A DNA stretch of 64,000 nt from Centroscyllium fabricii. Taxonomy: Eukaryota. Position numbers and translations under genes: made by a program. The stretch lies in contig JBNRSN020000006.1 of NCBI GenBank assembly GCA_051313645.2, positions 55,180,001 through 55,244,000 on the forward strand. Direction: 5' to 3'. Positions 14,772-58,513 of the stretch are shown here, piece by piece (position 1 is the first letter of the stretch; each line of letters starts with the position of its first letter). The notes beneath the pieces were generated by a model. The model saw only the letters and a list, made by a program, of their open reading frames with translations, was not told the origin of the DNA and ran no database searches.

Positions 14772-15424
14772 CAGGTTGAGCACCATTAATCCGGCACAGG
14801 CGGGATCAGGCCCATGCCGGGAAAGCAAAAATCCCGAATGATTGAAGCTTCAGCGAGCGCATGCGCAGACCACTCAAAATGGCCGCTACGAAAGGCCGGT
14901 GGCCATTTTGAGTGGTCTGCGCTTGTCGTTCGGGGAGGCCCGGCATCGTTCGGAGACTCGCAGAGTCCCGACTGGGGCTGACTCGCGGAGGCTCGCAGAG
15001 CCCCGGCTCGGGGTGGCCTGCAGAGCCCCGGTTGGCGGAGGCTCGCAGAGCTCGGTGGGTGGCTCGCGGAGGCTTGGGGCGACTCGCAGAGCCCCGGCTG
15101 GGGACGGCTCGCAGAGCCCCGACTCGGGGGCGACTCGCAGAGCCCCGGCTCGGGGGGTGGCTCACGGAGGCTTGGGGCGACTCGCAGAGCCCTGACTGGG
15201 GACGGCTCGCAGAGCCCTGGCTCGGGGTGGCTCACGAAGGTTCGGGATCGGCTCGGCCATTTTGAATGATCTGCGCATGCGCTCGCCGTTCGGCGGCGCA
15301 TGCGCAGATCATTCGCCAAAGCATCAATCGCGGCGGTCATTTTGCGCAGGGCAGTCAGGGCGATTTGTGCCGGACGTTCGAAGTTGCCGGCTTTTCGGGT
15401 AACGGATTAATGGTGTTCAGCCTG
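14772..15424 (+). mobile_element. pogo/Tigger-like MITE copy 1, with internal GC minisatellite
   Basis: TA|CAGGTTGAGCACCATTAATCC...GGATTAATGGTGTTCAGCCTG|TA. Repeats of ctcgcagagccccggctcgggg at about 14957-15240. Confidence 0.88.
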
Positions 15425-18400
15425 TACTGTAAATATCCTAATATTTTTGATACTGGTGACTCTGAATAGTCCTTGCCAATCGCTGATTTTTAATCACTTG
15501 TTTCATTTATCTCCATTTTGATTTACTATGGTGGCCTTTATTGACTATTTTACACACCAGTTCCCTGGAACTCATTTTGCTTAACTATACAAAGGCGGTG
15601 ACTGTTCAACCTTGTTCAGTGATACTCATTTCCTGTAAGTTTACCAGCAATTTTATAGGTTAGATGAGAAGTCAATATGCTCTATTTAAAAATGATGGCG
15701 TGATTCCAAAATGAAACTCTGCTTCAGTTCTACATTGTGTAATCTTACACCGATAAGTCATGCTCTTATGAATTTATTTCCCTGTACAAGTAAAGGACAC
15801 GTGATTGTGATTTTCTTTTGGGGGGGGTGAGGGGTTGGAAATTTAACAAACTTCAGGATATTTAAAGGGAACCAAAGTTAGCTAAGTGGCATAGAATAGG
15901 ATTATCAATATGTAATAAATTAGTTTTGATTTATTTTTCTGTTGTCCTAATGAATTAGTCATTGTTGTAGCCAAATGCACTTTGATCCCTTCCTAAATTT
16001 TAAAATCAATGGTTGGTAAGAGTTATTCATGGTCTCCAGTTTCCAAAATATTAAATTGAAAGGATATTTGCATTATTACAAGGGGGGAGGGGAAAGAAAT
16101 AATGAACTCCCAGGATCTTGGTGGCCTAATAGCTGAACAGTACAGCATTGCATTCGCTCCTGCCGACCACTGTTTCCTTTTTCTGGTACAGTATTGTTTG
16201 TAGCTGCTTCCTGTACTGGCTAAGTTAAATAGTCACGTAGGTCTCAACTTTGGGAGCTCCATCATAACTTGATTTCCACAGTATTAACTTAAGACCGGCT
16301 GCCTTGTACAGTTCTGAGGAGTATTAAACACCAACCATTCACAAAGTGCAGTTTTGAGATTTTTATTTTCTCTCCATGGCCTAACAGTTCCATAAGTAGA
16401 TATTGTCCCTGTGACCTGGAATCTGTATCTTTTCGTTACTTTGACTGAAGTAACAACTACTTCCAAATAATTCATAATATAAAGCCCCAATAATCCGCAA
16501 TTGCTGAAAGTTATATATGGGATGAGTTTGGGTGTCTGCGTTAAGAATCGAAGCTTTTATTTACTTGGGCATTCAACTCATTGCTGTTTGTGGGAGCTTG
16601 CTGTGCACAAAAAGGCTAACTACACTTCGAAGTGATTCATTGTATTGAGAATGAGATGAAACACTGCTTGAATTCAAGTTTTTTTTTTGTTACTGCATGG
16701 TGAATTTAGCATCGTTTTGTACTGTCCTTAAATCTTTTTCTTTTGTTTAAAGCTCTCTGCTTTTAACTGCTCCGGTGTTGACTCAATGATAGAGATTCTC
16801 GAACAAACTCGTCCTTAATATGTACATGCAATTAACAAAAAAAAAAAAAGATGTCACTAATGTCGGGTGGAGATCCAGAAAGATATAAATACTTTGCATG
16901 TCTGTATCAAACATACAAATCTTCAGTTCTTTTTGATTAATTTGATTAATGCTGCTCGTTAAAACAAGGCCATCATTCAAATTGATTTTTTGATCAGCCA
17001 CAGTCTGGTCTTTTATGCAAATGAGACCACAATTAAAACTTTTGAAACCATATAACCCCATAGGAAATATGTGAGTGTATCCAGGCACAAGCTGCTGTGG
17101 TAGAAATAAGATTATGCAGGAGTAAAGTTTTACTTTTTGTTAAGAAAATTGTCACTTGATTTAATTTTTAAAAATAGAATCCAAAAATGACATTAACAAC
17201 TTGCATTTATTAGCGTCTTCAGCCTAGAAAAAGTACCAAACCGCTTCTCACAGGTGTAATCAAAAAATGGACACGGCGCCAAAGAAGATATTCAGAGGGG
17301 TGACTTGGTCAAAGAGTTGGCCTTAAAGGAGGAAAGGGAGGTGGAAAGATAGAGGGGTCTCGGGAGAACATTCCAGAGAGTAGGGCCTAGGTGACTAAAG
17401 ACAGAGCCACCAATGGTAGGACGAAGGGAGGGGTGATGCACAAGAGGCCAGAGTCCGAGAGCGTGGATGGGTTGTAGGAAGTTACAGGGATAAGGAGGGG
17501 TGAGACTATGAAGGGATTTAAACATAAGATTTTTACATTTTAGATGTTCGGGACCAGGATAGGAATAAAGAGCGGAGTTTTGGATGAGTTGAAGTTTACC
17601 GAAGGTGGAGAATATCCGGTTGGCCAGGTGATTATTGGAATAGTTGAGTCTTAAGATGACACATGCATGGATGAGGATTTTTGCAGCTGATTGACTGAGG
17701 CGGGGCAGAGGCGGGTGATGTTGGACGTGGAAGAAGGCAGTCTTTGTGATGGAGAGGTTATGGGATTGGAAGCTCAATGTAGTTGCGAACAGTCAGACAG
17801 TGGTCAGGAAGGGCTACAATTGGTGGCAAGGATATGGAGTTTGTATTGGGGGCTGAAGATGTTGACTTCAGTCTTCCCAATGATTAGTTTGAGGAACGTG
17901 GGGCTCATCCAAGATTGGATGTCAAGTAAGCGGTCTTAACAGCACAGACGGTGGAGGGGTTGAGAGAGATGGTGGGTTGGTACAGATGGGTGTCATCAGC
18001 GTACATGTGGAAGCTGACGCCACATCTTCAGATGATGCCACCAAGGGGTAGCATGTAGATGAGGATGAGAAGGGAGCAAATGATGCATCCCAAGGGTGAT
18101 TTCAGAAGTAACGTATGGGGATGGGAAGAGACACCATTGCTTGAGATGCTCTGGCTATGATCGGATAGGTAAGAGTGAAACCAAGCGAGGGCAGTCCCAA
18201 CAAGCTGGACGAGGGAAGGAAGGCTTTGGAGAAGAATGGTGTCGGATTGCAAAAGTGATGGGGGGGGATAATGCACCACAGCCACAGAGAATCGTGTTTG
18301 TGACTTGCTTAGGGCCGTTTCAGTGCTGTGGCAAGGGCAGAAACTTGATTGGAGAGGTTCAAGCATAGTTACCAGAAAAGTGGGAACAGATTTGGGAGGC

Positions 18401-18562
18401 GATAACTTCTTCAGAGACTTTAGGAAAGGGAGGTTGGAGATGGCGCATAGTTTGGAAGGTCTGTGGGGTCTAGTTTTTTTTTGAGGAGTATGATGGCGGG
18501 GCTGAAAGGGAGGGGGCAGATCATAAGGAGAGGGAACCATTTGCAATGTCAGCTAATATGGG

Positions 18563-18711
18563 TTTCGGAGCGCTGCTCCTGACTTCACCTGATGAAGGAG
18601 CAGACGCTCCGAAAGCTTGTGATTTCAAATAAAGCTGTTGGACTATGACCTGGTGTTGTGGGACTTCTTGCATTTGTCCACCCCAGTCCAACACCGGCAC
18701 CTCCACATCAT
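18563..18711 (+). mobile_element. Penelope-derived insert, copy 2 (short inverted 5' piece), nested in L2
   Basis: 12-bp TSD agctaatatggg at 18551-18562 and 18712-18723. Confidence 0.85.
18585..18622 (+). ncRNA. Minimal type I hammerhead ribozyme motif (intact)
   Basis: UCAC-CUGAUGA-A-GGAGC(AGAC)GCUCC-GAAAGCUU-GUGA: stem I UCAC/GUGA, 5-bp stem II, palindromic AAGCUU. Confidence 0.78.
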
Positions 18712-19742
18712 AGCTAATATGGGGACCAAGAACTGAAGTTGGGTGGTCAGCGGTTTAGCGGGATTAGGGTGAAACATTTTCAGACCAAGCATGGGTGGAG
18801 ATGGGACAGAAGCTACAGAGTTGTGTGTTCAGGGCTCGGGCAGGTTTCCATGGCATGGGGAAAGTGGGGAAACAGCAGAGGCAGCTGAACAGATAGTCTC
18901 AATCTTGGTGCCAAATGGCCTTGCTCATCAATATCTATTGGCTATCTTGTGGTTGGCTATTGTATGGATCATTAGGAATTCTCCTGATTACTGCCCAATA
19001 TGACCACTCATTCGCTGAATTAATTATACATCCGTTGTTGAACAGCAACTGTAGCCATCCGCAGTGTAGGCACTCGCACTCTGTCCTTTCTGGCTATACT
19101 ACATGCACACCGCTTCATCTTTGGGGTTGGGGGCGTGGTGTGGAATGCTAACCCTGACAGGCGGACAAGATTAAAATGAAAATCTACTGGATTGTGAAGC
19201 TCCCTTCCCCGAGGATTCTTTCAGGGTGTTGCTAAATTGAACGACTGAAAAGCTAGCCAATTTAACCAAAATTCCCTTATTTAGTAATGAGAACAAATGA
19301 GTAATGGACGAGCAATCTTTATTTCCTCTCCATGGATTTTAGCATTCAGAGTTCTTGGATATTGCAAGACCTGGTTAAGAGCTGTTCACTTGAAAATTCA
19401 TATAAGGCTGCTTTGTAAATACAAATTCTGATGGTCAGGAAAACCTATCAATCTGCTTTAAACAACAGGTAAAATCTCAGTCTGCATTTTCCTATGTCAA
19501 CTGGGAATAATTGGTCATTTTTTAAAAATAATGGTTAGAACATGCAGTGTTTGTCTTGCATTAATAATTGTGTCTAAGCTATTTTGTTTACTCATTTGCT
19601 TACTGTCTGTGCTAGTTATAATGTTTAACCTCACACAGGGCTGTTCTGTGGTCTGAACCTCCTGGGGTAGGGGGAGCGTGAGGGTGGCGGGTGTGGGGTG
19701 AGATAAGACCACCAGGCCCATCCAGTTCAACCTCTAGTACTA

Positions 19743-20165
19743 CAGGTTGAACTTCGTTGATCCGGCACCCGAGAAACCGGCAGCTTCAGACGTCCGGCAC
19801 AGATTTCCCCGAGTGGTCGGCGCATGCGCAGTGGTGCTCCTCGCCGTCCGCAATCCTCGACTGGCCTGCGCATGCGCAGCGGCGCTCTTCGACGCTTCCT
19901 GCGCTTCACAAAAAACCCCGTACCTGACATGAAGCTCGGGCCCCGTGAAGTGTTGGACCGGGCTCCCTCCCGGGGCCTTTCCCGAATGCGCACTGGTCCT
20001 GACGGCGTGGCTTCAGCCGCACCCGACCTTCTGGGGGGTGTCCGCAACCATGCCTGACCTTCTGGGGCGTGTCCCCATCGAGTGCTCCAATCCGCTGAGG
20101 CCTCACCGACTGCTTTACCGGCGAGCTACAGAGCTCCATCTTGCAGAGTGTGTGTCGTCGTCGTC

Positions 20166-20196
<31 letters not shown>

Positions 20197-20536
20197 GTAC
20201 TCTGCTCTGTTCCACCCGTGAGCCGCGGGCAGTTGTACTACTCGACCCGGAAAGCTTTGAAATCGCCCCGTACTCTGCTCTGTTCCACCCGCGAGCCGCG
20301 GGGAGTTGTACTGCTCCACCCGGAAACCGCCCCGTGCTCTGCTCTGCCTCCACCCGCGCGCTGCGGCCACTTGCACTGGTCTGCGCGTGCTGCAGCCATT
20401 TCGAATGTTCTGCGCATGCGCACGGCCATTTTGAATGGTCCACGCATGCGCTCGGGACAGCTTCATTCGTTCGGGTTTTTCAGTATTCCGGCACGGGCCT
20501 GGTCCCGACCCTGCTGGATCAACGAAGTTCAACCTG
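19743..20536 (-). mobile_element. pogo/Tigger-like MITE copy 2 (distinct TIR variant)
   Basis: TA|CAGGTTGAACTTCGTTGATCC...GGATCAACGAAGTTCAACCTG|TA is a perfect 21-bp TIR. Internal poly-C and a duplicated unit of about 70 bp. Confidence 0.9.
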
Positions 20537-20804
20537 TATTGGTGACTGGAGTTCATTCGCGGCACCCAATACTGTTCTTTTTTTAAGTGGAGATTTTCTG
20601 ACTGTTTTTCGTTGTTGTTTCTGGAGGGATTTTCTTGGCCCTGAAGTAAGTCATGCTTTAGAATTCAGGTTTACGGGGTGAGAGTCTCCCAAATAGGCAC
20701 TTTTTTAAGGTAAGCTTGAATAACTAACACTGCGTTAGATTTTCTGTAAATGTTGCCACGACACCTGTATTTTGTTTGCTAGTGTAGAATATTATTTTGT
20801 GAAT

Positions 20805-22815: not shown

Positions 22816-22977
22816 AAATTCCAGGAATGCTTTTTCCAGTAAACTGCCTTGTGATCTCTCATGGGTAGCCACATTTGATGAATGCGAGAGTTATAGAACA
22901 TGGATTAAGAGTTGGAAGAACACTGCTTTGCAGCAAGTTTCCAGGGCTGGAACCTCTGAAAGAGGGGTGCAAGAGAA
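22816..22977 (+). other. RNF19A: 5' UTR portion of the first coding exon of RNF19A
   Basis: Polypyrimidine tract and acceptor tctttccttttacag end at 22815. An in-frame TGA at 22957-22959 precedes the ATG at 22978. Use of this acceptor is inferred. Confidence 0.6.
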
Positions 22978-23564
22978 ATGAGTTTACATCGCAATCAGCA
23001 AATGGGATCGGACCGTGACCTGCAGTCCTCTGCATCCTCAGTCAGTTTACCTTCTGTTAAAAAGGCACCAAAGAAACGCCGTCTTTCACTCGGGTCTCTG
23101 TTTCGAAGGAAAAAAGAGTCAAAACGAAAGTCCAGGGACTTAAATGGAGGAGTTGATGGAATTGCAAGTATTGAAAGCATTCATTCAGAGCTATGTAATG
23201 ACAAGAACTCCATGTTGTCAACCTGTGGCTCTTCTGAAAGTGGGACTGCATCCACTGACAAACAAAGTGGAGACTTTCTTGAATGCCCTCTGTGCCTTTT
23301 ACGTCACTCTAAGGACAAATTTCCAGATATTATGACTTGCCACCACAGGTCGTGCGCAGACTGCTTACGGCAGTACTTGCGGATCGAGATCTCCGAAAGT
23401 AGGGTCAATATCAGCTGCCCAGAGTGCACCGAGAGATTCAATCCCCATGACATCCAATTGATTTTAAATGATGATTTGCTGATGGAGAAGTATGAGGAAT
23501 TTATGCTACGCCGGTGGCTGGTGGCAGATCCAGACTGCAGATGGTGCCCTGCTCCAGATTGTGG
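22978..23564 (+). CDS. RNF19A: RNF19A coding exon 1: N-terminus, RING1, start of IBR
   Basis: [35 protein letters not shown]...CPLCLL...CHHRSCADC...CPEC...[10 protein letters not shown] matches RNF19A as recalled. Donor GG|gtaagg at 23564/23565, phase 2. Confidence 0.96.
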
Positions 23565-24807
23565 GTAAGGAAAGACCAGATTGGATGTAATGGTTGTCAC
23601 GTAGGGGAAGGAAACATGGAAACATAGAAACATAGAGGAAGAGGAGAAGAGGGATCACGTGGGTTGGTTTACTTCCAGGTGTATCAAAATAGTGCCATTT
23701 TGGAGTTATTAAGTGTGTTCTGTCAACCCAGTAAAGCACTGATTTTTCATTTATCTGCTGCCCCAATAGATATGATATGCTTTTATTGCTATCATAACAT
23801 TAAACATTATCATTAGGTCAGCCTAATTTTTCACACTGCAAGTTGCCCCTTCTGCAGAATCAACTGCAAAGTTATATAACATCAAACACTTAAGTTACAA
23901 TGCCTGGAAGTCTCTGGTCGAATGCATCCTGTTCACGTGGTAACTTTCTGACTCGAGCATTCAGCATTTGATTGAAACACTAGAAAAAATATCTTTAGTC
24001 CACTTGCTCGTAATTCCATTTTGAGCCAATATTTTCTCTCTGGTTTTGTGTGTCTAGGCTGATTTATATTGTACTTAAACATTTAAGATGTTAATGTGAT
24101 TGCAATTTAGAATGACTTGTACAATTTAAAAGCATGCAATTGTAATTTTATCCATTGGTGAAATCACTTGGACCAGTATGTGAATCGAACCCTGAGGTTT
24201 GCTGCTCAGAAATTGCCTGCAAGGTGTGACTTGTGCAACAGATTTGATGGTAGCTGTCTTCGTCTCTGTGGTTTCTCTCAACTCTCTGCACAGTGCTCCC
24301 CCGATATGTTCATCAAGTCATTTAGCGAATCAGCTGCTTGTGCAGATTAAGAAGGTCACACATTTTGTCATCGTCTGTCAGTTGATTCCTGCCCTGCCCA
24401 GCAGCAGGGCTCCACAATTGGGCTAAGTGCCCCTGGTTAAAGTGGAGGAATATCGGCCGTGGTTCCCACTTGAGGTAGAGGCAGATTAGTCATGGATCTT
24501 GCTCCTGATCGCTATTTAACAATGCCTGCTGAAAATGTGTGTTTGCAGGAATTAGGTGAGGATCGAATTGGGCTCCAAAGTGATATTCTTCCCGTTAAAT
24601 AGCTCGATGGCACTCGCTGTCAAAGCTGCTTTGACACGGTACACCATAGATGCTCCGTGCCTGTGATACCTTCCCCTAGCAAGGAGTTGATGCTTTCAGG
24701 GGTGGAAGAAAATTGTCAGTAAAAAAAAAAAAAAACACACGCATTGACAGAACTATTTACACAACTTATTCAGGAATGCTGGAAGAGGTCTCAAAGACAC
24801 ACACTAT

Positions 24808-25925: not shown

Positions 25926-25998
25926 AGTTTTGTATAGTGTATTGTGTTTGTAACATTGGTAAATGTTACAAACACAACACTAATACACTATACAAACT
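25926..25998. repeat. Imperfect inverted repeat (hairpin)
   Basis: tttgtatagtgtattgtgtttgtaacatt-ggta-aatgttacaaacacaacactaatacactatacaaa. Confidence 0.85.
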
Positions 25999-26662: not shown

Positions 26663-26677
26663 GGAGAAACTGGGAGA

Positions 26678-28385: not shown

Positions 28386-29304
28386 TGTTTTGCTGTATTC
28401 CATTGTTACTGTTCTTCAAAGGATACACCTAGCTTGATATCGAAAGCCTTTGTGTGGGGAGAGAAAAACAGACTTCTCTTATTTAACCAAATTACATAGC
28501 CCTCTTCCAAGACCAATATTCCACTGGTCTGATTTCATAATAAAACAGCAAGATTACTCATCTTGCCTGTGCACTCTTCAGCACTAGAACATTTCATGTC
28601 TTGAGCATTTAAGATTTATTTTATACTTAAAGATCAGTCTAGGTTGGTTTTTTTAAGTGCTGGTCATAGGCCAATCCACTTTCATTTTGATTTGCAGGGT
28701 GCATTAAAAAGCTTGATGGGTTCGATTTAGATGCAGAGATTTGAGTCACATATGTTACAGGGTTAAACAATAAGCGTTTGCAATTGGTGTAATTGTTCAC
28801 TTTTGTAAAGCTAGTTAGGAGTACATGAACATGAACTGATGAAAGCATGTGTAATGGGACTTGGCTTGAAGCATTACAGATGTTAACTTCTCTGAGTTTC
28901 AAAGCAGACTTCTAAGAAATTAAAGTCTCAACTTATAAGTCAGTTTGAATAATGGAACAACTAATACTTTTGTGGTTGCATGCATGAAATACTTTTAGAA
29001 ATTACAATAGCACTAATGTTACATGGCTAAATATTTGATGCTTTTGTATGATGTGGCTCATAGGCTTCAGGAAGCTTAAAAAAATTCCAACATTATTTTA
29101 TTCCTTTTCTAACCTAAATTGAGCAGTTAAAAATAGAGGTGTGCCCATTGCTTGCTTTGTGTTTTGGGATGGGGAAGTGCTATAAATAACATTTTAATTT
29201 GATTTACACTCCAGTTAGTTTACATTTATTGACCTGAGATTATCAACATAGGATTTTATGGAGGTGTATGAACTTCGATAGTTAACTACTAAAATTCTTT
29301 ATTA

Positions 29305-29970
29305 CAGGTTGAGCACCGTTAATTCGGCACGGGTGGGACTAGGCCTGCGCTGGTATAACGAAAAAACCGGGAGAATTAAGTCGGCCAGTGCGCATGTGCG
29401 CACCATTTAAAATGGCCGCGCGCATGCGCACAACATTGGAAATGGCCCCCGGAAGTTTTGATCACCTGCCGTGTAGCTGCAGCCGCCCAGAACCCGCCGT
29501 GCAAAGATCCCTCGGCTCGGCTCCACAGGTAGACAGGAATGGGACTCTCCTCACCCCACCCCGGCTCACAACCATAAATTAAGGCCCAGGCTGCAGGCCC
29601 AGCACAGCACTAACAAGTTAGTAGAGCCCAGTCCCGGGCAGCGCTGAGGGAGTGAACCCGGAGCGAGCGACAGGTCCTTGCCGTTCGGCGGCGCACGAGT
29701 GAGGAGGCAAAGGTCGGTCCAGCCTCCAGCGGCCATTTTGAATGATCTCCGCATGTGTTCGGCGGCGCATGCGCAGATCATTCAAAACTTCCGGTGGCCG
29801 TTTGAATGATCAGCGCATGCGCTCGCCGTTCGATGGCGCAGCCGCAGATCAGTCGCCGAAGCATCGACCGTGGCAGCCACTTTGCGCATGCGCAGGACAG
29901 TCAGGGCATTTTATGCCGGGCGACTGAAGTTGCTGGCTCTTTGGTTACCAGATTAGCGGTGCTCAAGCTG
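29305..29970 (+). mobile_element. pogo/Tigger-like MITE copy 3
   Basis: TA|CAGGTTGAGCACCG...CGGTGCTCAAGCTG|TA, with GCGCATGCGC motifs. Confidence 0.87.
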
Positions 29971-30126
29971 TATAAGGATTCCTTGAAGCATATACATTAG
30001 CTATTGAATCTAGATTTGCTTTCAGTGATCTCAAACTTGGACTTATATCTGAATTTAATGGTATGCGCTGTCTAAATAGGGCTTGAACACCCAGTACTGC
30101 GCCCAGTCCTGGCCCCTGTATATAAT

Positions 30127-33092: not shown

Positions 33093-33980
33093 CCTCAAAG
33101 AGGACTACAGTCAAATCAACGATATGCTCCCTGTCCCTTTCTCAAAGGTTTCCGACATAGCAATCAGTCTAGCAATCAATCAAACCCAATGTCCCAGTTT
33201 TTGACTGGCAAGCAGGTCTGTGATTGAATGCAGTCACGCCAGGCGTTTGACAATTACCATTGACATTCCATGTTCTGCTTTCCTTAGCAATTTGCATCTT
33301 ATGAAGCCCTTTGCAGCCCAGCCTGTCTGGTGTCTCGGCTCAGGACTCTTGAGAACTTCTCTCTGTGACTGGGCTTTTAACCCGGAGAATACAAGTTTAA
33401 ATTTAACGCTGGCAATTAAGTGAGTCTGATCATAACTGCTGTCTGTATGTTCACGTTACTGTGAATTAATGCAGCTCATCCATTCATATCTGCCCCGCCT
33501 CACCAATTGTTTGCTCCATCTGTCTCCGGAGAGATTGGAGAAGCACATGTGCAAAAGATGAGGACATCTGGTTCAAGTCGCAATGGCGCACTAATGTTAC
33601 AAACCCTTGGGTTACGGCAGTGTGAATCAACACCCATAAAGTAAGGCGCTCAGACCATTTATGGGAATGACTGAAATCACTGAACCAGAGAGGGTATCTG
33701 TGGCCGACCCAAATTTGAGATATTGGTCTAATTGCTCAATTTGGGAGTTGGGGTTTCGATCAGAGCTGCTTTGTAGTGATTGAGTACTGGTAAAATGGAT
33801 CTGAGGGTTTGTATGAAGGTACGGAGTGATTCAAACTTATGAAGTCTGAGAAACCTTTGGGATGCATGTGTGGCTAGTTGACAATCAAAGATTTTATTTG
33901 ATGTCCAGTGAAATAGAGTGGCAGTAAGGATTGAATTTGTTTTCATACAGATAATAATTCATTTATTTTTGTTTTTGCAG

Positions 33981-39983: not shown

Positions 39984-41275
39984 CAACAACAACTTGCATT
40001 TATATAGTGTCTTCAGCATAGTAAAACGTCCCAAGGCCTTTCAAAGAGGTAGGTTTGAAGGAGCATCTTAAAGGAGGAGAGAGAGGTTTATGGAGGGAAT
40101 TCCGGAGCTTGGAGTCTAGACGGCTGATGGCACGGCTGCCAATGGCGGAGCCAAGAAAATCAGGGATATGGCCAGAAATGGAGGAGCACAGAGATTTCAG
40201 AGGATTGTTAGGGCTGGAGGAGGTTACAGAGGTGGTGAAGTGCAAGGCCATGGAGGAATTTGAAAACTAGGCTGAGAATTTTAAAATCGAGGTGTTGCTG
40301 GACCAGGAGCCAATTTGATCAGCTAGCACAGGAGTGATGGGTGAACGGGGCTTGGTGTGAGTTAGGATATGGGCAGCAGAGTTTTGGATTTGTTGGCTGC
40401 ACGGTGGCATAGTGGTTAGCACTGTTGCCTTACAGCACTAGAGACCTGGGTTGAAATCCGGCCTCGGGTGACTATCTGTGTGGAGTTTGCACATTCTCCC
40501 CATGTCTGTGTGGGTTTCCTCCGGGTGCTCCGATTTCCTCCCACAGTCCAAAGATGTGCGGGTTAGGTTGATTGGCCATGATACATTGACCCTTAGTGTT
40601 AGGGGGATTGAATATGTGGGGTTATGGGGATAGGGTGGGATATGTGTCGGTGCAGGCTCGATGGGGATCGAGGGATATGGGGACAAGGCAGGGACAGGGT
40701 ACTGGGTTTGGATGATCAGCCATGATCTGATTGAATGGCAGAGCAGGCTCGAAGGGCCGAATGGCCTACTCCTGCTCCTATCTTCTATGTTTTTCTATGG
40801 ATGAGCTCCAGTTTACACAGGGTGCAAGGTAGGAGGCCGGCCAGGAGTGCGTTGGAATAGTCAAGTCTAGAGGCAACCAAGGCATGGATGAGGATTTCAG
40901 CAGCGGATGAGCTGAGAAGGACGGAGACGGGCAATGTTATGGAGGTGAAAATAGGCCGTCTTGGTGATGAAGATGATATGTGGTCGGAAGCTCAGTTCAG
41001 GGTCAAATAGGACGCCAAGGATGTGAACGGTCAGGTTCAGTATCAGACAGTGGCTAGGACAAGGGATGGAGTTGGTGACCAGGGAATGGAGTTTGTGGTA
41101 GGGACTGAAGACTGTGACTTCAGTTTTCCCAATATTTAATTGGAGGAAATTTCTGCTCATCCAGTACCGGATGTTGGACAAGCGGTCTGACAAATGGGAG
41201 ACAGTGAAGGGGTCATGAGAGGTGGCTTTGAGGTTAGTACTGGGTGTCGTTGGTGTACATTTGGAACCTGACGTG
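39984..41275 (-). mobile_element. L2 LINE 3' fragment with nested V-SINE
   Basis: WMSRNFLQLNIGKTE, LGVLFDPELSF, KTAYFHLHNIARLRP. Tail (caa)n cttgcatttatatag. Confidence 0.88.
40395..40798 (+). mobile_element. V-SINE (HE1-like) nested in L2
   Basis: Same head, V domain and tail as 7622. The host L2 resumes afterwards, with a possible tggat duplication. Confidence 0.92.
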
Positions 41276-43002
41276 CTTTCTATGTCTGCATGCCTTTCCT
41301 ATGTCCACAGTTAGACTGGAAATAGCTTATACAAATGTGTGATGATGTAATTGTATCCTCCTGCAAGTAGAGGCACTGCAGCACCGCCACTGACAGGAAG
41401 TTGTAATTGTAGCACAACCTGTTTATGTAGGCAGTTGCCATTATAAATGTGGACCTGGGAACTTAAACTGGAAATGAGGAATTTTATTTAAAAATGGGAA
41501 TCGAATCATACCTGCATGTCTTAGTCCAATTATCCCCATGGCCCTAACCCTGCTTCACCTGAAGACTACACTTGGTCTTGACTTCCTTTGTGCAACGCAC
41601 AAGAGATTGACGAGTTAAAAATCTTGTTTGGGGTGCACAATTCCTGTCCACAATATCAGTATATTTGTTTCTCAGTCCTGTCATATTTACTATCATAAAT
41701 GACTGTCAACTGTCACAGTGTAGTTGCAAATGTTGGCCACTCGGCAGTTCTGTGGAATGAGTTTCTAACATGACTCTTAACTTCATTGCCATCCTGTATT
41801 ATAAAAGCTTGTATTCATCAACTGACTGCAGGGAATGCCACATGTAATTTACTGTTATTTAGTGGAAATGGCTGTGTATGTCGAATGCTCGACTGGGTTT
41901 GGCTTATCCTTTCTAAAATGCAACATAAATGGGATTGGAAATTTTTATCTTGGTTACTTATTAGTGGGGCGACTTAAAAATCCAGTTCCATTTTATTAAA
42001 TTGGATTCAGAGATTTTTACTGATGTTGTGGGAATTGCATATATGAGACCTGCTGCTACAATGCAGGATATCTTCATACGGAGGACACACTCCATTGTGT
42101 TGTGTGGCACTACCACCGTGCTAGATTCCGGCACACAGACGATGGGCCAAAAAGCCTTCTGTGTGTAAACTTCTATGAAATGGGCTAGATTCAGAACAGA
42201 TCTAGCAGCTCAAAACGGGGCATCCCTGAGACGCTGTGGGCCATCAGCAGCAGAATTGTATTTCACCGCAATCTGTAACCTCATGGCCTGGCATATCTCT
42301 CACTCTACAATTACCATCAAGCCAAGGGACCAACCCTGGTTTAAGGAGGAGTGTGCAAGAGCATGCCAGGAGCAGCACCAGGCATACCTAAAAATGAAGT
42401 GCCAACCTGCTGAAGGTACAACACAGGACTACATACATGCTTATCAGCATGCTATGAACAGAGCTAATCGATCCCACAGTCAATGGATCAGATCAAAGGT
42501 TTGCAGTCCTGCCACATCAGTGGTGGACAACTTAACAACTAACTGGAGGAGGAGGCGGCTCCATGAACATCCCCATCCTCAATGATGCACATGAGTGCAA
42601 AAGCTAAGGCTGAAGCATTCGCGACCATCTTCAGCCAGAAGTGCCGAGTGGATGATCCATCTTGGCCTGAGGTCCCCACCATCACAGAAGCCAGACTTCA
42701 GCCAATTCGATTCACTCCACATGATATCAAGAAACGGCTGAGCACATAGCAAAGGCTGTGGGACCAGACAACATCCCGACTGTCGTGCTGAAGACTTGTG
42801 CTCCAAAACTAGCTGCGCCTCTAGCCAAGCTGTTCCAGTACAGCTACAACACTGGCATCTACCCGACAATGTGGAAAACTGCCCAAGTATGTCCTGTCCA
42901 CAAAAACACCACTTTCTCACGAATAACTTGCTCACTGATGCTCAGTTTGGGTTCTGCCAGGACCACTCGTTTCCATGCCTCATTACAGCCTTCATCCAGA
43001 CA

Positions 43003-43405
43003 TGGGGTGGCACGGTGGCATAGTGGTTAGCACTGTTGCCTCACAGCTCTGGAGACCCGGGTTCAAATCCAGCCTCGGGTACTATCTGTGTGGAGTTTGC
43101 ACATTCTCCCCGTGTCTGCGTGGGTTTCCTCCGGGTGCTCCGGTTTCCTCCCACAGTCCAAAGATGTGCGGGTTAGGTTGATTGGCTATGGTAAAATTGA
43201 CCCTTAGTGTTAGGGATTGAATATGTGGGGTTGCAGGGATAGGGTGCGATATGGGTCGGTGCAGGCAAGATAGGGATCGAGGGATATGGGGACAAGGCAG
43301 GGACAGGGTACTGGGTTTGGATGATCAGCCATGATCTCATTGAATGGCAGAGCAGGCTCGAAGGGCCGAATGGCCTACTCCTGCTCCTATCTTCTATGTT
43401 TCTAT
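43003..43405 (+). mobile_element. V-SINE (HE1-like) nested in the LINE
   Basis: Same structure as 7622. The host sequence cagacatgg|acaaaagagc is split, with an atgg duplication. Confidence 0.92.
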
Positions 43406-43581
43406 GGACAAAAGAGCTGAATTCTGAAGGCAAGGGTGACTGCCCTTGACATCAAGGCAGCATTTGGCCGAGTGTGGCATCAAGCAACCCTAGTAAAAAT
43501 TTAAGTCAATGGGAATCGGGGGTGGAGGAGTGGGGGGGAACTCTCCATTAGCTGGAGTCATCCAAGCACAAAGGAAGAAGG

Positions 43582-44507
43582 AAGATAGAATATAATGTGG
43601 ATAAATGCGAGGTTATCCACTTTGGTGTCAAAAACAGGAAGGCAAATTATTATCTAAATGGCAATAGATTGGGAGAAGGGGAAGTGCAATGGGACCTGGG
43701 TGTCCTTGTACACCAGTCACTGAAAGTAAGCATGCAGGTGCAACAGGCGGCTAAGAAGGCAAATGGCATGTTGGCCTTCGTAGCGAGAAGGTTTGAGTAC
43801 AGGAACAAGGATGTCTTGCTGCAGTTGTACAGGGCCTTGGTGAGACCACATCTTGGGTATTGTGTGCAGTTTTGGTCACCTTATCTGAGGAAGGATGTTC
43901 CTGCCATGGAGGGAGTGCAGCGAAGATTCACCAGGTTGACTTATGAGTAGCGATTGGGTCGATTGGGCTTATACTTGTGGGAGTTTAGAAGAATGAGAGG
44001 GGATCTCATTGAAACTTATAAAATTCAAACAGGACTAGACAGACTAGATGCAGGAAGGATGTTCCTGATGGTCAGGGAGTCCAGAACCAGGGGTCACAGT
44101 CTAAGGATAAGTGGTAAGCCATTTAGGACAGAGATGAGGAATTTCTTCACCCAGAGAGTGGTGAACTTCTGGATTCTCTACCACAGAAGACCATAGAGGC
44201 CAATTCATTAAATATATTCAAGAAGGAGTTGGATGTATTTCTTAAGGCTAAAGGGATCTAGGGAGAAGGATGAAAAAGGATACAGAGTTTGGATGATCAG
44301 CCATGGTCTCATTGAATGGTTGGAGCAGGCTCAAGGGGACGAATGGCCTACTCCTGCTCCTATCTTCTATGTTTCTATGTAAGGGATATGGAGAGAAGGC
44401 AGGGACAGGGTACTGAAATTGAATGATCAGCCATGATCGCATTGAACGGCAGAGCAGGCTCGAGGGGCTGAATGGCCTACTCCTGCTCCTATCTTCTATG
44501 TTTCTAT
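43582..44507 (+). mobile_element. Young CR1 3' fragment with a doubled 3' UTR, nested in the older LINE
   Basis: DKCEVIHFG, LVRPHLGYCVQFWSP. Two successive tails end at about 44379 and 44507. Confidence 0.9.
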
Positions 44508-46519
44508 ATAGTTGTGGTTGTTGGAGGCCAATCATCTTAGTCCCAGGACATCGCTACAGGAGTTCCTCAGGTTGGTTTCCTAGGCCCGACCATCTTCAAC
44601 TGCTTCATCAATGACTTTCCATCCTCATAAGGTCAGAAGCGGGGATGTTCGCTGATGATTGCACAGTGTTCCACTCCGCAACTCCTCAGATAATGTAACA
44701 GTCCGTGCCCACGTGCAGCAAGACGTGGACACCATTCAGGTATGGGCTGATAAGTGGCAAATAACATTTGCGCCACACATGCCAGGCAATGACCATCTCC
44801 AACAGAGAGAGTCTAACCACCGCCCTTTGACATTCAACAGCATTACCATTGCCGAATCCCCCACCATCAACATCCTGGGGGGGTCACCATTGCGCAGCAA
44901 CTTAACTGGACCAGCCACACATACTGTGCCTACAAGAGCTGGGTATTCTGAGGCGAGTGTCTCAACTCCTGACTCCCCAAAGCCTTTCCACCATCTGAGG
45001 CACAAGTCAGGAGTGTGATGGAATACTCTCCACTTGCCTGGATGAGTGCAGCTCCAACAACACTCAAGAAACTTGACGCCATCCAGAACAAAGCAGTCTG
45101 CTTGATTGGCACCCCATCCATCACCTTAAACATTCACTCCCTCCACCACCGGCATACCGTGGCTGCAATGTGTACCATCCACAAGGTACACTGCAGCAAT
45201 TTGCCAAGCCTTTTTCAACAGCATATCCCAAAGCTGCGACCTCTACCTTCTAGAAGGTCAAGGACAGCAGGCGCATGGGAAAACCACCACCTCCAAGTGA
45301 CACACCATTCTGACTTGGATACACATCACCGTTCCTTCAAATTCCTGGAACTCCCTCCCCAACAGCAGTGTGGGAGTACCTTCACCACACGGACTGCTGC
45401 AGTTCATGAAGGCAGCTCACCACCACCTTGAGGCCAATTAGGGGTGGGCATTAAATGCTGGCCTTGCCGGCGACGCCCACTTCCCATGACCGAATATATA
45501 TTTGAAAAACAGAAGGTGCATAGTTCAGTATTACAGGGCTTACATAATGGCTGCTTTATGCACAGTATTCCAGTTTTCCTAATTTAAAATTCCTGTTATT
45601 TTCACAATAGCTTACTGCAATTTTCTACGATCTGTGTAAAGGCAGCCATTTACAGCACTTCAGGTATACTAAAGTGACCCCAAAAACCTAAATGAAATGG
45701 AAAATGCGTTACCTAATGAGAACAAAACCAGTTTATTTCCTTAATGTTTCTGGTGTTGTATGGTTAAGCGAATCCCATATTTAGCTTCTATCTCATCCTC
45801 AACAGCACATTTTTTTCTTTGTTCTGTCAGTATGCTTAGCAACAGAGGTATGTTTAGATTGATCTATGGATAGATGTGCCCAGAACTTTGATAAAACTGC
45901 CATGCTTTGTAATTGGAAATTTCTGGTGGAAAATTAAATAGTTACAGCCTCAATTATCAGGGTGTTGGGCTGCCAGCAACTCATAAGTTTCAGTATAGTA
46001 TTGACATCACATCAACCATATGGTTTTTGAAATGGTGCAACAAATAAATAGTGACTTGTACCCTGATTATAAATTATATTTCAAGCACTTGCAACTTTGG
46101 TAGAAATATGAAGCAAAGACAAACAACTTTCTGAGATTCCGTTCTTTGAGTCACATCCCACTGCATTCTGAATCATTCTTACAATGTCCATTAGATCATC
46201 TCTATGGCAATGACTCATCAAATCAGCAGCATACAGCATGTTTGTTAGAGAAATTATTTAGAGTAAGTTGGGCGAATCTGTAGCAGGTTTTGGAGGGTTG
46301 GGTGGAAGATGGCACCTGGGTGGATACAGCAGGATCAAGGGTTCATGCACGTCACCAGTGCCAAATTCAAAGTGACAACATTGTTTTTTTGTGGAAATGG
46401 AACAGAAGGCTTGGTTATTAATTTCTTTATCAGCAAATTGGCAATCAATCATTTTTTTTAAATCACAAAGTGGATCCAAACATATTTTTGCTCATCTTGT
46501 ATCCAGGTGCCTAGAGGTA

Positions 46520-47044
46520 CAGGTTGAGCACCAGTAATCCGTAACCCAAAAAACCGGCAGCTTCGAACGTCCAGCAATAATTTCCCCGACTGCGCCGCGC
46601 ATGCGCAAAGTGGCCACCGCGATTGATGCTTTGGTGACTGATCTGTGCATGCGCCGCCAAACGGTGAGCACATGCGCAGATCATTCACTGGCCCTCCGAG
46701 CCCCGCCCAGCCTCTCCGAGCCCCGCCCAGCCTCTCCGAGCCCCGCCCAGCCTCTCTGAGCCCCGCCCAGCCTCTCTGCCTCTCCGAGCCCCGCCCTGCC
46801 TCACCTCTCGGAGCACAGCCTCGCGCGTCCAAGCCCAACCTCGCCGGGCCTCTCTCCGAGCCGATTCCGGGCCTCCCCGAATGACAAGCGCATGCGCAGA
46901 CCACACAAAATGGCCGCCAGCCTTTTGCGGTGGCCATTTTGAATGGTCTGCGCATGCGCTCACGGACGCTTCAATCGTTCGGGGTTTTCACTTTCCCGGC
47001 ATGGGCCTGGTCCCGCCTGTGCCGGATTAACGGTGCTCAACCTG
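46520..47044 (-). mobile_element. pogo/Tigger-like MITE copy 4, with a 20-bp tandem core
   Basis: TA|CAGGTTGAGCACC...GGTGCTCAACCTG|TA. (gagccccgcccagcctctcc)n at about 46695-46795. Confidence 0.9.
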
Positions 47045-47402
47045 TACCACATGGTTCTTATTACTTTTAAGAATTAAAAAAATACATTTTTTTAGTTAAT
47101 TTGAAGTTTTGTAGTGTTAACAAGAATAAAGGAGTAACTGACAGCTATTGTAAAGTTCTTGTCATTTACAATGCTTTCTGCATTCATTACCTAAAAGATA
47201 AATTTCAATCTATGGAAAACTCAATGTTGCATACAATAATCTTTTTAAGCAACATGACTTATTGACTGTTCTGAATGATCTCTGCAACATTTGTATGGCA
47301 TTTATTTATTGGGAGAAGCTGAAAGAGTGTTTTTAGATATATAAATGCACTACATGGTTTTGCTTTTGACTGTTTGTGTTTAGCCTGGTCTTCCTTAACC
47401 TT

Positions 47403-49275: not shown

Positions 49276-49438
49276 TCCTTCTGGCTGCACGTTTTGGGGA
49301 AAGAAACCTTGGAGTCGTAAAAAGAAGATTCTGTGGCAGCTGGGCACGTTGGTTGGTGCTCCAGTCGGAATAGCTCTCATTGCAGGGATTGCCATTCCAG
49401 CCATGATCATTGGCATTCCTGTATATGTAGGCCGAAAG
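49276..49438 (+). CDS. RNF19A: RNF19A coding exon 4: first hydrophobic/transmembrane segment
   Basis: Acceptor ctctttctag. Reads (S)[54 protein letters not shown]. Donor AAG|gtacag. 163 nt, phases 2 to 0. Confidence 0.96.
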
Positions 49439-50291
49439 GTACAGTGTAGACATTGGTATTTAAAGTGCTTCAAAACATGCTGTGCTGATTTGGAACCAAG
49501 TATTTAATGCAGGGTAAATTTCCTGATGGCAGTTAAAGCTGCAGTACCTCCTGGAGGACTTGGAATTCACTTTGTTCCTGAATTTTGATTCCTGGATCCA
49601 AAGCAGAATAACTATTAAATAACTAGTACTGTAAGTGAGGGCCCCCACAATAGTACTGTAGCTAGTGCTGCCCTGGTAAAGAAGGTTTCTTAATGCTCAA
49701 ACATGGTTAGAAGTACTTTCTCAGTAGAGGTTCCTTCTGCTTTAATGTTTAATGACCATGGAACCTCCGAATTACTCATTTTTAAAGGCGGATTTGATTT
49801 TTTGGCGAGGGTGGAGGGTGAGAAGGCAAGACACTGGGGATTAGGGTAGGGAGAGGAAAACCTCATATATAGCCTTGAGGACTGCAGTGTATGTTTTGTA
49901 CCAATTTGTTGCTGGCAATCCAGTAAATTTCAGAAACATTTTAAATTCCTCTTCTACTTTGTGTGACATTGTAAATAGTTCAGCTGTTGCAAGACGTATA
50001 GCACTGCCAAAAAAAAGTATGAGAATTATTGTGAACAACACAACAATGATTTTTCATGACAAATCATTAACACAACCATTTTTTAAAAAAAAGTTCAAGG
50101 CCTATTCTAAATTTGAATAAAATTAACATATTCCTCAAGAGAAAAGGTTTCTGTGCAGTAGACTCAGTTTTAAAAAAAATATATAAAACTCTTATTTTCA
50201 GTTTGCCATGAGGCAGCTCTACAGGAAATGTCAATAGTAGTGAGTTGAACATATAGGATCCTCACCACCTGGTTAACATTGTGCTTACCTT

Positions 50292-51710
50292 TAGAATCAT
50301 AGAGGATAGGAGCAGGAGTAGGCCATTTGGCCCCTCGAGCCTGCTCCGCCATTCAATGAGATCATGGCTGATCATCCAAATTCAGTACCCTGTCCCTGCC
50401 TTCTCCCCATATCCCTTGATCCCTTTATCCTTAAGAAATATATTCAACTTCTTCTTGAATATATTTAATGAATTGGCCTCAACTGCCTTCTGTGGTAGAG
50501 AATTCCACAGGTTCACCTCTCTCTGGGTGAAGAAATTCCTCCTTATCTCTGTCCTAAATGGCTTACCCCTTATCCTTACACTGTGACCCCTAGTTCTGGA
50601 CTCCCTGACCATTGGGAACATCCTTTCTGCATCTAGTCTGTCTAGTCCTGTTAGAATTTTATAAGTTTCAATGAGATCCCAACTCATTCTTCTAAACTCC
50701 AGCGAGTATAAACCCAATCGACCCAATCTCTCCTCATACGTCATTCCTGCCATCCCAGGTATCAGCCCGGTGAATCTTTGCTGCACTCCCTCCATGGCAA
50801 GAACATCCTTCCTCAGATAAGGTGACCAAAACAGCACACAATACTCAAGATGTGGTCTCACCAAGGCCCTGTACAACTGCAACAAGACATCCTTGTTCCT
50901 GTACTCAAACCCTCTGGCTATGAAGGCCAACATACCATTTGCCGCCTTAACCGCCTGCAGAACCTGCATGCTTACCTTCAGCGACTGGTGCACAAGGACA
51001 CCCAGGTCTCGTTGCACTTCCCCTTCTCCCAATCTATTGCCATTCAGATAATCTGCCTTCCTGTTTTTGCCACCAAAGTGGATAACCTCGCATTTATCCA
51101 CATTGGGCAGAAGCATGGCAGATGCAGTATAATCACCCAACCTGTCCAATTCATACTGGAGTTTCTCGGTATCCTCCTCACAGTACATGTGCCCACCCAG
51201 ATTTGTGTCGTCTATAACATGGAGATATTAAATCGAGTTCCCTCGTCTAGATCGTTAATATATACTGTGAATAGCTGGGGTCCAAGGACCGATCCCTGTG
51301 GTACCCCACTAGTCACTGCCTGCCACTCGGAAAAAGACCCGTTTATTCCAACTCTTTGCTTTCTGTCCGCCAACCAGTTCTCTATCCAAGTCAATACCTT
51401 GCCCCCAATCCCATGTGCCTTAACTTTACACGCTAATCTCTTATGCGGGACCTTATCAAACACCTTTTGAAAGTCCAAATACACCACATCCTTATCTATT
51501 TTACCAATTACATCTTCAAAAAATTCCAGTAGATTAGTCAAGCACGATTTACCCTTTGTAAATCCATGCTGACTTTGTCCGATCCGGTCGCTGTTTTCCA
51601 AGTGCTCTGCTGTTACACCTTTTATAATCGACTCTAGCTTTTTCCCCACTACCGATGTCAGGCTTAATTCCCCGCTGTAATTCCCCGTGTTCTCTCTACC
51701 ACCTTTTTTT
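50292..51710 (-). mobile_element. Young CR1 LINE RT fragment plus 3' UTR
   Basis: [56 protein letters not shown]. Confidence 0.95.
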
Positions 51711-51824
51711 CTTAGACTGGCCTGTTAGAAATGCTCTTGGAACAGAGTCCAACATGACATTGAGTGACTCAATGTAGAGCTCTGACTTTGATCCTTCCAA
51801 AGGACCAGGAAGTTCTATAGTGAG

Positions 51825-55913: not shown

Positions 55914-56118
55914 CAGGTTGTGCACCATTAATCCGCCACGGGCAGGACCAGGCCCGTGCCGGGAAACTGAAAAAAACAGGAGAACGAGGTTGGACACTGC
56001 GCATGCGCACCAGTCAAAATGGCCGCGCGCATGCGCACAACATTGGGATTGGCTGGCGCAGATCATTCACAATGGCCGCTGCGAAGTTTTTAATGATCTG
56101 CGCATGCGCTGCCGAACA
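55914..56118 (+). mobile_element. Truncated MITE copy 5 (left end only)
   Basis: TA|CAGGTTGTGCACCATTAATCC. The first 140 bp or so are near-identical to the start of copy 7. No right TIR. Confidence 0.8.
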
Positions 56119-56726
56119 GGACTTTTGCTTTGCCTCTTAGAACTGAGGCTTTATAATTCCTTAGGAATAGGTTTGAAATGTGACTTGAGGTAAAATTATT
56201 TTTCAGCTAATAACCGTGCCAAAGTTTAAATCCTCACTAACCCTCTCTAAATTGGATGCAAAATATGAGCTAGTCTGCACTAAAATAAGAAAATAATTGA
56301 ATTCCTAGAGTGGGTCTGTTTTTAAGATTTTTAATGCCTTTTGGATCACTAGTTACATTTTTTGAACACTACTTTTTTTAAACCTGCTGATGTCTGAGAG
56401 CAAAAACCAGTGCAGCTTAAACTTATTCCTGTGCATCCCCCAACCCTTCGCCTCCTCTTTAGCCGCCTAGGCCCCCACTCTGCAATTACCTCTCTGGACC
56501 TTTCCACTGCCTCATCCTTTTAAGACCCTCCGTAAAACTAACTTCTTTGAGCAAGCTTTTGGTTACCTCCCCATATATCTCAACTTTGGCATGGCATCTA
56601 TTTGTCGATTATGCCTCTGTCCATCGCTTTGGGGCATTTTTCGAATTTTAAAGGAACTATATAAATTTTTAATTTTTTTCCTCCTCCTCCTCCAATTAGA
56701 AAGAAAGACCGATTTGCATTTATATG

Positions 56727-57191
56727 CAGGTTCTGCACTGTTCATCCATTATCCGATAAGCCGGCAGCTTCAGTCTTCCGGAACAAATTGCCAAGACTGC
56801 CCTGCGCAAAATGGCTGCCGTGATTGTTGCTTCAGGGAATGATCTGCGCATGCGCTGCCGAACGGCGAGCCGGGGCTTCCCGAGCCTTGCCGTACCGAGC
56901 TGGGGCTTCCCGAACCGGGCCTCGTGTTATCGAGCCGGGGCTTCCCAAGCCGGGCCTCGCTTCACCTTACCGAGCCGGGGCTCCCTGAGCCGGGCCTTAC
57001 CGAGCCTCCTCGCGCCAGCCTTACCGAACGATAAGTGCATGCGCAGACCACTCAAAATGGCCACCAGCCTTTCGTGGTGGCCATTTTGAATGGTCCGCGC
57101 ATGCGCTCGCCGAAGCTTCAATCGTTCGGGATTTTCACTTTCCAGGCACGGGCCTGGTCCCACCCGTGCCGGATTAACAGTGCTCAACCTG
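56727..57191 (-). mobile_element. MITE copy 6, inserted in a SINE tail
   Basis: TG|CAGGTTCTGCAC...GTGCTCAACCTG|TA. The flanks rejoin to ttgcatttatatagcgcctttcacg. Confidence 0.82.
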
Positions 57192-57564
57192 TAGCGCCTT
57201 TCACGACTACCAGACGTCTCAAAGCGCTTTACAGCCAATGAAGTACTTTTGAAGTGTAGTCACTGTTGTAATGTGGGAAACGCAGCAGCCAATTTGCGCA
57301 TAATTACAATAATTTCAAGAATGAAAAGAAATTACAACAACTTGCATTTATATAGCACCTTTAACATAGTAAAACATCCCAAGGCGCTGCACAGGAGCCT
57401 CATCAGACCAAAAATAGGCTTCTCCGTCTCCTCGTTTTTCTCCAGTTCCTCCTTCCGTTGGAGAGCCTGAACCAATTCATGTTATTGCAGTGGGACGTTA
57501 GAGTGACTATAACGACGGAAAGCTACTATACACCTTGCTGAAGGTTTTTTTTTTAATTTTTCAG

Positions 57565-57679
57565 ATTCATAATCGCTACGAAGGAAAAGACATCTCGAAA
57601 CACAAGCGGAACTTGGCAATCACTGGAGGTGTGACGTTATCTGTAATTGTTTCTCCTGTTGTTGCTGCAGTAACTGTCG
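57565..57679 (+). CDS. RNF19A: RNF19A coding exon 5: second hydrophobic segment (not in the ORF track); gene continues beyond the window
   Basis: Acceptor taatttttcag. Reads [38 protein letters not shown](G). Donor G|gtaagg. 115 nt, phases 0 to 1. I saw no further exon before 64000. Confidence 0.95.
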
Positions 57680-57698
57680 GTAAGGAAGCAAATTACCT

Positions 57699-57747
57699 TT
57701 CAACAATGTAGATCTCTGTTCAACAATGTAGATCTCTGTTCAACAAT
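57699..57747. repeat. 20-bp tandem duplication just downstream of the exon donor
   Basis: (ttcaacaatgtagatctctg)x2 followed by ttcaacaat. Confidence 0.9.
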
Positions 57748-57983
57748 CATTGGGTAATAGAGGTAGCTGCATTTATTGGTAGTTGATAATTGCTTCTTGT
57801 AAAGGCAATATTCTGGACAAAATTGAAGCACAATCAGGATAAATGTCACTTCACTGCAATATTTTTAGCTACCAAAAATGGGCTGGTGTGCAGTTTGAAT
57901 CTGTGCACTGTATGCTTCACTGTTATTCTCTGATTTATTAAGTGTTGTGCTGTGTCTCCCTCCTTTGAAATTGTTTACTGGTA

Positions 57984-58513
57984 CAGGTTGTGCACCATTA
58001 ATCCGCCACGGGCGGGACCAGGCCCGTGCCGGGAAACTGAAAAAACCGGGAGAACGAGGTTGGACACTGCGCATGCGCACCATTCAAAATGGCCGCGCAC
58101 ATGCGCACAACATTGGGATTGGCTGGCGCGCGCATGCGCAGATCGGGCCTGGGTCCACCTTCCCTCCATCGCCTTTCGGGTTGCTGCTGCCGCCGAGCCG
58201 GACTCAGGCTGACAGCTGTTGCCTAGTGACTGTCCGCCTCAGTCATGGGGCTCAGCTGTCGAGAAAATAACCGGCGGCCGTATTGAATTATCTGCGCATG
58301 CACTAACCGTCCGGCGACGCATGCGCAGATCATTCAAAACACCCGGCAGCCGTTTTGAATGATCTGCGCATGCGCTCGGCGCATGCGCAGATCATTCGCC
58401 GAAGCCATGATGGCGGCTGCCATCTTGCGCATGCGCAGTGCAGTCGGGGCAATTTGTGCTGGCAGACTGAAGCTGCCGGCTATTCGGAACACGGATTTTC
58501 GGTGCACAACCTG
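57984..58513 (+). mobile_element. pogo/Tigger-like MITE copy 7
   Basis: TA|CAGGTTGTGCACC...GGTGCACAACCTG|TA, with many GCGCATGCGC motifs. Confidence 0.9.

Follow-up and report, generated by a model that had tools for sequence, protein, structure and literature searches.

CpG-rich Tigger/pogo-type MITEs with NRF1-like palindromes and captured gene starts in the shark Centroscyllium fabricii

The window analysed here is a stretch of 64,000 nt from the 7.2-Gb genome of the shark Centroscyllium fabricii (GenBank assembly GCA_051313645.2, contig JBNRSN020000006.1, positions 55,180,001 to 55,244,000 of the forward strand). Its RING and IBR exons belong to the host gene RNF19A (97-98% identity to shark proteins), and seven CpG-rich elements, E1 to E7, lie either within RNF19A introns or on the 5' side of the earliest coding exon that was found. 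As the initial annotation had proposed, they form a family of MITEs (miniature inverted-repeat transposable elements) of the pogo/Tigger type, with a TA duplication and short terminal inverted repeats (TIRs), which disperses CpG-rich NRF1-like cassettes. In several subfamilies, a point that the initial annotation overlooked, gene starts have been captured between the arms and then amplified, and the inserted copies appear to be methylated passengers rather than portable promoters. The labels NRF1, YY1, RFX X-box, cAMP response element (CRE) and CLEAR/E-box are our assumption throughout, taken from consensus motifs and not from matches to a motif library.

Six of the seven elements are complete, with two inward-facing ends. 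All seven start where the initial annotation placed them as TA-flanked, CAGGTT-ended elements, but E5 is truncated to one end and the left TA of E6 reads TG; the CAGGTT ends hold in general, with one change at the far ends of E1 and E3. The features are listed below (element coordinates include the flanking TA dinucleotides; GCGCATGCGC is the repeated palindrome).

14770..15426, minus strand: MITE E1, TA on both sides, core a tandem array of ~25-bp units, three GCGCATGCGC
19741..20538, plus strand: MITE E2, variant TIR at each end, unique GC-rich core
22960..23565, plus strand: open frame with the RING1 exon of host gene RNF19A (IBR exon near 33958)
29303..29972, minus strand: MITE E3, a subfamily, 2,206 candidate copies of the E3 core
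29490..29725, no strand assigned: unique cargo of E3, GC-rich
46518..47046, plus strand: MITE E4, tandem 5/10/20-bp core, 6,140 candidate copies
55912..~56118, minus strand: E5, truncated E7-like element with a single end
56725..57193, plus strand: MITE E6, left TA reads TG, tandem ~15-bp core
57982..58515, minus strand: MITE E7, youngest subfamily, ~0.6% non-CpG divergence
58142..58262, minus strand: captured cargo of E7, with an ATG and an RFX X-box-like motif

Pooled, the elements amount to 3,864 bases with a GC content of 0.62 and an observed/expected CpG ratio (CpG o/e) of 0.98, and taken singly (n=7) they range from 0.56 to 0.65 in GC and from 0.95 to 1.06 in CpG o/e, which is CpG-island composition. 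The rest of the window has a GC content of 0.43 and a CpG o/e of 0.41; the contrast in CpG drawn in the initial annotation is real, but the background is only moderately AT-rich. The palindrome GCGCATGCGC occurs 23 times inside the elements and not once in the 60,143 bases outside, while 200 dinucleotide shuffles of the elements give a mean of 0.055 and a maximum of 2, so that its enrichment was confirmed. Its full 12-mer TGCGCATGCGCA is found only six times and is missing from E1, E4 and E6. The proposed YY1-like motif is borne out in part: AANATGGC occurs 14 times inside and 16 times outside, which makes it ~14-fold denser inside, but the ATGGCG form, which we take to be the best YY1 site, never occurs inside.

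Tigger-type elements are abundant in this genome (1,715 DDE_1 candidates), and their transposases have CENP-B_N, HTH_Tnp_Tc5 and DDE_1 domains. No transposase frame was found in the MITE elements themselves. The MITE ends are asymmetric: one arm resembles the right ends of Tigger elements past the first six bases (z 4.4-7.8), and the MITEs and the Tigger elements have CCGGCA-type repeats in common. Pogo elements are described as having a TA duplication and TIRs of at most 40 bases (PMC7386202). Like the pogo/Tigger-derived MITEs described there (Gao et al., 2020), the shark family combines a TA duplication, short TIRs and lack of coding capacity; unlike them, it has modular cores, made up of tandem arrays, of arrays of the cassette or of gene starts that were captured. 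Two loci considered as autonomous partners, L080 and L087, were rejected as MITE fragments joined to a different Tigger. At both (L080:2065-2350 and L087:1330-1467) a MITE left-arm fragment is fused to the transposase gene ~30 bases before the DDE domain, at a nearly identical point in two different copies of an abundant Tigger family; this coincidence may be due to ascertainment, the loci having been chosen for an intact DDE domain. Loci L101-L103 and L104-L106 show a second Tigger family, whose open frames span 505-619 residues, and a group of near-identical Tigger copies clustered on contig C967, where the open frame has 558 residues. A 510-residue pogo-like open frame at L111:1894-3424, with no match to the main Tigger family and with a cassette MITE directly behind it, is possibly a domesticated TIGD-type gene.

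The size of the family was estimated from 100 stretches of 10 kb each, taken at even spacing and amounting to 999,800 called bases, which contain 16 cassette elements; this corresponds to ~115,000 copies in the genome (95% range 66,000-187,000). An NRF1+YY1-like composite of 19 letters, counted by exact match, has 62,755 occurrences genome-wide, against 0 for the control. Lengths are mostly 300-900 bases, TA is present at both ends in 144 of 163 paired elements, and all complete copies have TIRs of ~25 bases that start with CAGGT. From the random stretches roughly one complete element would be expected in 64 kb, and the window has six, a density to be read with the choice of the window after the fact in mind; since the flanking 200 kb holds a single cassette element, the high density is local. 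The RNF19A introns are also filled with many 3' fragments of long interspersed elements (7600-8010, 34770-35580, 40470-40800, 43000-44500 and 50290-51720, by RVT_1 matches), presumably of the CR1 type, and an Rfam scan of the window gave 0 matches. Among the random stretches, 12 of 15 cassette elements lie in the lower-GC half. The same 999,800 bases contain six elements (6 per Mb) of a sister family that has identical ends and no cassette; since this family has spread, the cassette is not needed for mobility. Sister MITEs with CpG-rich tandem cores and no NRF1-like cassette were seen at L051:2161-2464, L157:7962-8344 and L162:3944-4479, and sister-family copies with unique cores at L134, L293 and L333. 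In an E4-type copy at L310:2286-3663 the internal 5/10-bp tandem array has expanded to ~1 kb; MITEs of this kind seed minisatellites.

The E7 site is empty in four of four related organisms (from three studies), where contigs join 57982 to 58516 with one letter between. Because these contigs span the empty site, which has one dinucleotide when empty and two when filled, E7 is a clean insertion with one extra dinucleotide. The element arms have zero cover in the four relatives, and one of the sequencing runs, X13, is also without E4 and E5 at the orthologous places (flanks ~4-6% diverged). Judged from these comparisons, which were made at 80-85% likeness, the MITE family is young and restricted to its lineage.

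The arms are common to the subfamilies and the cores differ. When the cores of the 16 random cassette elements were assigned to classes by reading, seven had unique gene-start-like cargo, two were composites with a piece resembling a short interspersed element (SINE), three were tandem arrays and four were cassette arrays only. In one cargo, 56 encoded residues match shark DDX60 at its N-terminus (77%, E 1.7e-11). Its parent locus, L269, lies in the same genome, has no arms and is 84% identical to the subfamily consensus over 295 nt, a match that spans ~110 nt upstream of the ATG plus 55 codons and is GC- and CpG-rich. Genome-wide, a word of 24 letters taken from this cargo was counted 3,408 times, which gives at least 3,408 copies, and among 30 DDX60-cargo matches both TIRs were found in 25 and cassette arms in all 30. 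The cargo of E7 has 16,152 genome matches, with both TIRs in 30 of 30 inspected, and its homologue lies on a single-copy contig in a relative without the MITE family (run X13; 33 bases are aligned, and the match runs on into a loose end). The cargo of a further subfamily, of which three copies were seen, matches residues 1-41 of shark CYB561D2 (61%, a match at the protein level only). This peptide match came from a full HMMER scan, whereas a word-index search and Pfam gave none; the other HMMER match, P0129, was discarded because the protein is repetitive. Exon 1, preceded by CRE- and E-box-like motifs upstream and accompanied by an intron donor, is present in the CYB561D2 cargo, which points to capture from DNA; nothing that links CYB561D2 to CLEAR motifs was found in the literature. 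None of the seven window elements carries the DDX60 or the CYB561D2 cargo. Gene starts were captured and their copies amplified within the MITE arms.

Other cores are less readily placed. The E3 cargo, which we infer to be of host origin, has no clear open frame. The core of E2 shows a donor-like site and a poly-C run, and a second copy of E2 is present at L266. Locus L270, the sole pattern-search match for a parent of the E7 cargo, was rejected as a truncated MITE fragment. At L316:5625-6148 a further cargo has an RFX X-box-like motif followed by a short open frame, and X-box-like motifs occur in two of the cargos seen. The cargo at L087:2375-3078 resembles a CCAAT-containing promoter with an exon 1 that is non-coding and an intron donor. 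Dispersed copies at L058:2468-3311 and L327:524-1402 have in common a composite core that includes a SINE-like piece, and therefore a retroelement fragment has been amplified inside the MITE. Two intronless DDX60-like matches at 63% identity, L267 and L268 (G000:C822), are possibly retrocopies or paralogues.

We then asked what has happened to the CpGs of inserted copies. The best genomic copies of four subfamilies were aligned and changes were counted from each consensus. CpG transitions exceed transitions at non-CpG C/G 5.3-fold in the E4 type (194/2804 vs 61/4710), 9.1-fold in the E7 type (117/3420 vs 24/6381; 6.1-fold in the arms of copies picked by the core alone), 4.7-fold in the DDX60 type (336/3761 vs 135/7096; 25 of 30 matches with both ends) and 4.7-fold in the E3 type (162/2518 vs 77/5666; 23 of 25 matches). 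Thirty copies of an autonomous Tigger, taken as control, give a ratio of 5.4-5.6. CpGs of the palindrome decay like other CpGs (p 0.86, 0.46 and 0.94), and every one of 108 copies has at least one CpG transition. The copies are CpG-rich because they are young (0.6-3.5% non-CpG divergence), which is the explanation that the initial annotation had named as fatal to its proposal. Its suggestion that inserted copies escape methylation is contradicted by decay like that of the Tigger control, with the NRF1-like CpGs not spared, and a mobile CpG island or promoter module that is unmethylated in the germline does not fit inserted copies with an excess CpG decay of 4.7-9.1-fold. CpG loss at the rate of other transposons indicates that the copies are likely methylated passengers, not portable promoters.

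The source lineages behave differently. The subfamily consensuses are 14-20% apart in the arms and still have a CpG o/e near 1.1. Comparison of three subfamily consensuses with the family-wide consensus gives 7/172 CpG transitions and 76/595 non-CpG substitutions, a ratio of 0.32, while the copies give 2.5-5.7; between subfamilies, source CpG decay per substitution is ~tenfold lower than in copies. Between the consensus of the DDX60 cargo and its parent there are 20 substitutions, and no CpG-to-TpG loss is among them. Among 24 representatives, lineage-shared changes affect only 1 of 20 columns of the NRF1-like palindrome vs 59 of 107 other columns and 5 of 20 columns of the CCGG repeats. The 10-mer palindrome is 0.92 identical between lineages, vs 0.86-0.87 for the TIR, and the cassette lies at a fixed distance of ~80-90 bases from both ends. 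A narrower form of the initial reading thus survives, in which the palindrome and the CpGs appear to be kept between source lineages, and the low CpG decay together with the kept palindrome suggests sources in open, unmethylated chromatin.

Taking these results together, we give a probability of roughly 0.6 to the following reading: these are young Tigger/pogo MITEs whose copies are methylated passengers, while a few sources in open, unmethylated chromatin gained gene starts and kept NRF1-like palindromes. Capture and amplification are observed in it; the state of the source chromatin, like any part that NRF1 may play, we infer. A Tigger transposase would act in trans, its targets being the TIR and the CCGGCA repeats in subterminal position. 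Cores would be exchanged by template switching during replication or gap repair, aided by the internal palindromes, and the same process would copy genomic DNA of gene starts into the cores. Unmethylated or open sources would be mobilised more, so that selection for CpG-rich and NRF1-like arms would operate among the sources alone, and after insertion the copies would become methylated and decay neutrally.

Several points weigh against this reading. The source test uses three subfamily consensuses, its majority consensus counts too few of the CpGs that were lost early, and its columns and lineages are not independent. The YY1-like word has changed in 7 of 14 columns and is conserved no more than other columns overall. 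The methylation state of copies is read from mutation spectra, and these copies are the best matches to a query and biased to low divergence, which should change the ratio little. The second MITE arm resembles Tigger left ends only weakly (z 1.8 and 3.9), and no autonomous element with the MITE's own TIR was found in the 50 loci examined (30 + 20 DDE_1 loci, from 150 listed) of the 1,715 candidates. The empty E7 sites of the four relatives read TG, not TA. Gene-start-like cargo is limited to the seven of 16 random elements, and the parents of the E2, E3, E7 and CYB561D2 cargos were not found in this genome, the best 40 matches in cargo DNA searches all being MITE copies.

The remaining difficulties fit a rival without selection on the motifs. 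Within a subfamily the two TIRs change together, single-stranded E7 DNA has a strong fold (z -9.5) and the source-level changes are mostly transversions (50 of 76), which together fit homogenisation by template switching; because of the transversion excess, the source changes may be fast repair errors that lower the CpG ratio without protection. According to this rival, the palindromes are by-products of hairpin-driven template switching, which also homogenises them, a proposal that we regard as doubtful although it deserves attention. The apparent CpG protection would arise because sources diverge fast by repair errors in little clock time, an explanation that we hold with equally little conviction, and gene starts would be captured simply where templates are accessible, again a tentative suggestion. 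The spread of the cassette-free sister family and the variable unit number of the four pure cassette arrays are in keeping with it, but against it stand the better conservation of the 10-mer relative to the TIR, the 20 substitutions in the DDX60 cargo without CpG loss and the 16 to 6 ratio of cassette to sister elements. The strong form of the initial reading, in which NRF1 and YY1 bind the inserted copies and these, protected against methylation, act as portable promoters or CpG islands, is improbable. A CpG o/e near 1.0, dense NRF1-like sites and cargos with real promoter and first-exon DNA would suit such a role, as would the enrichment of MITEs at tissue-specific open chromatin described in Xenopus (PMC12676858), and a mild overdispersion of CpG loss in E4-type copies (p 0.03) leaves room for a protected minority; the Tigger-like decay, the unspared motif CpGs, the lack of any copy without CpG transitions and the location of most cassette elements in lower-GC DNA all argue the other way. 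DNA methylation restricts NRF1 binding in mouse embryonic stem cells as described in PMC7605266, and NRF1 binding to most copies is for this reason unlikely. Very improbable is a cassette that serves transposase binding or end pairing instead of a host factor: its fixed distance from both ends and its conservation between lineages would fit, but it is absent from the two full-length Tigger copies examined (L114 and L116) and from sister MITEs with the same TIR, and the Tigger ends share CCGGCA, not the palindrome.

The reading with passenger copies and few open sources can be carried further, to a conjecture that we put forward as rather unlikely: a MITE lineage living off host promoters, in which selected NRF1-like cassettes would keep sources unmethylated and within reach of the transposase in the germline. 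Such sources would repeatedly capture CpG-island gene starts, each amplified thousands-fold, and the more than 60,000 intact NRF1+YY1-like composites, silenced by methylation, could open where methylation is lost.

Known systems offer partial parallels. In animal Pack-TIRs, surveyed in 100 genomes with 4 of 370 being multicopy and an example with three copies (PMC8277862), host sequence also lies between TIR arms, as in the multicopy Pack-hAT-N8_XT with the CAPSL 5' untranslated region (UTR) (Tan et al., 2021), which further resembles the shark case in an armless parent elsewhere, transposition after capture and a GC-rich 5' UTR cargo. Unlike them, the shark cargos have at least 3,408 and 16,152 matches each, and one family has captured repeatedly; the word shark is absent from the main text of that paper, whose supplements may list shark cases or higher copy numbers. 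Rice Pack-MULEs favour GC-rich, open, low-methylation genes and redistribute GC-rich DNA (Zhao et al., 2018; PMC5861414). The shark family likewise captures and redistributes GC-rich gene DNA, although it belongs to another superfamily and kingdom, and while ~40% of the rice elements are described as both transcribed and low in methylation, the shark copies show what appears to be methylation-type decay. The Xenopus tropicalis MITEs hAT-N16, Harbinger-N12A and Kolobok-N2, found at open chromatin in liver (PMC12676858), have internal palindromic repeats and transcription-factor motifs in common with the shark family, but they belong to other superfamilies, carry other motifs and are supported by the assay for transposase-accessible chromatin. 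Our literature searches (Dfam and Repbase being outside the scope) brought up no paper about this family, nor any about shark MITEs with NRF1 motifs.

The family is a high-copy variant of Pack-TIRs with a testable signal at the source level. Animal cut-and-paste elements are described as capturing genes rarely and, with few exceptions, in a single copy (PMC8277862); in the shark family there are 3,000-16,000 copies per cargo, and repeated capture and multiplication by one MITE family look closer to plant Pack-MULEs. Thousands of copies of the first exons of DDX60 and other genes could mislead gene annotation and read mapping, and, hypothetically, cargo copies could yield small RNAs against their parent genes. 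The pairing of CpG-rich sources with decaying copies would allow a direct test of why few MITE masters succeed, and of whether they do so through unmethylated chromatin together with a host factor.

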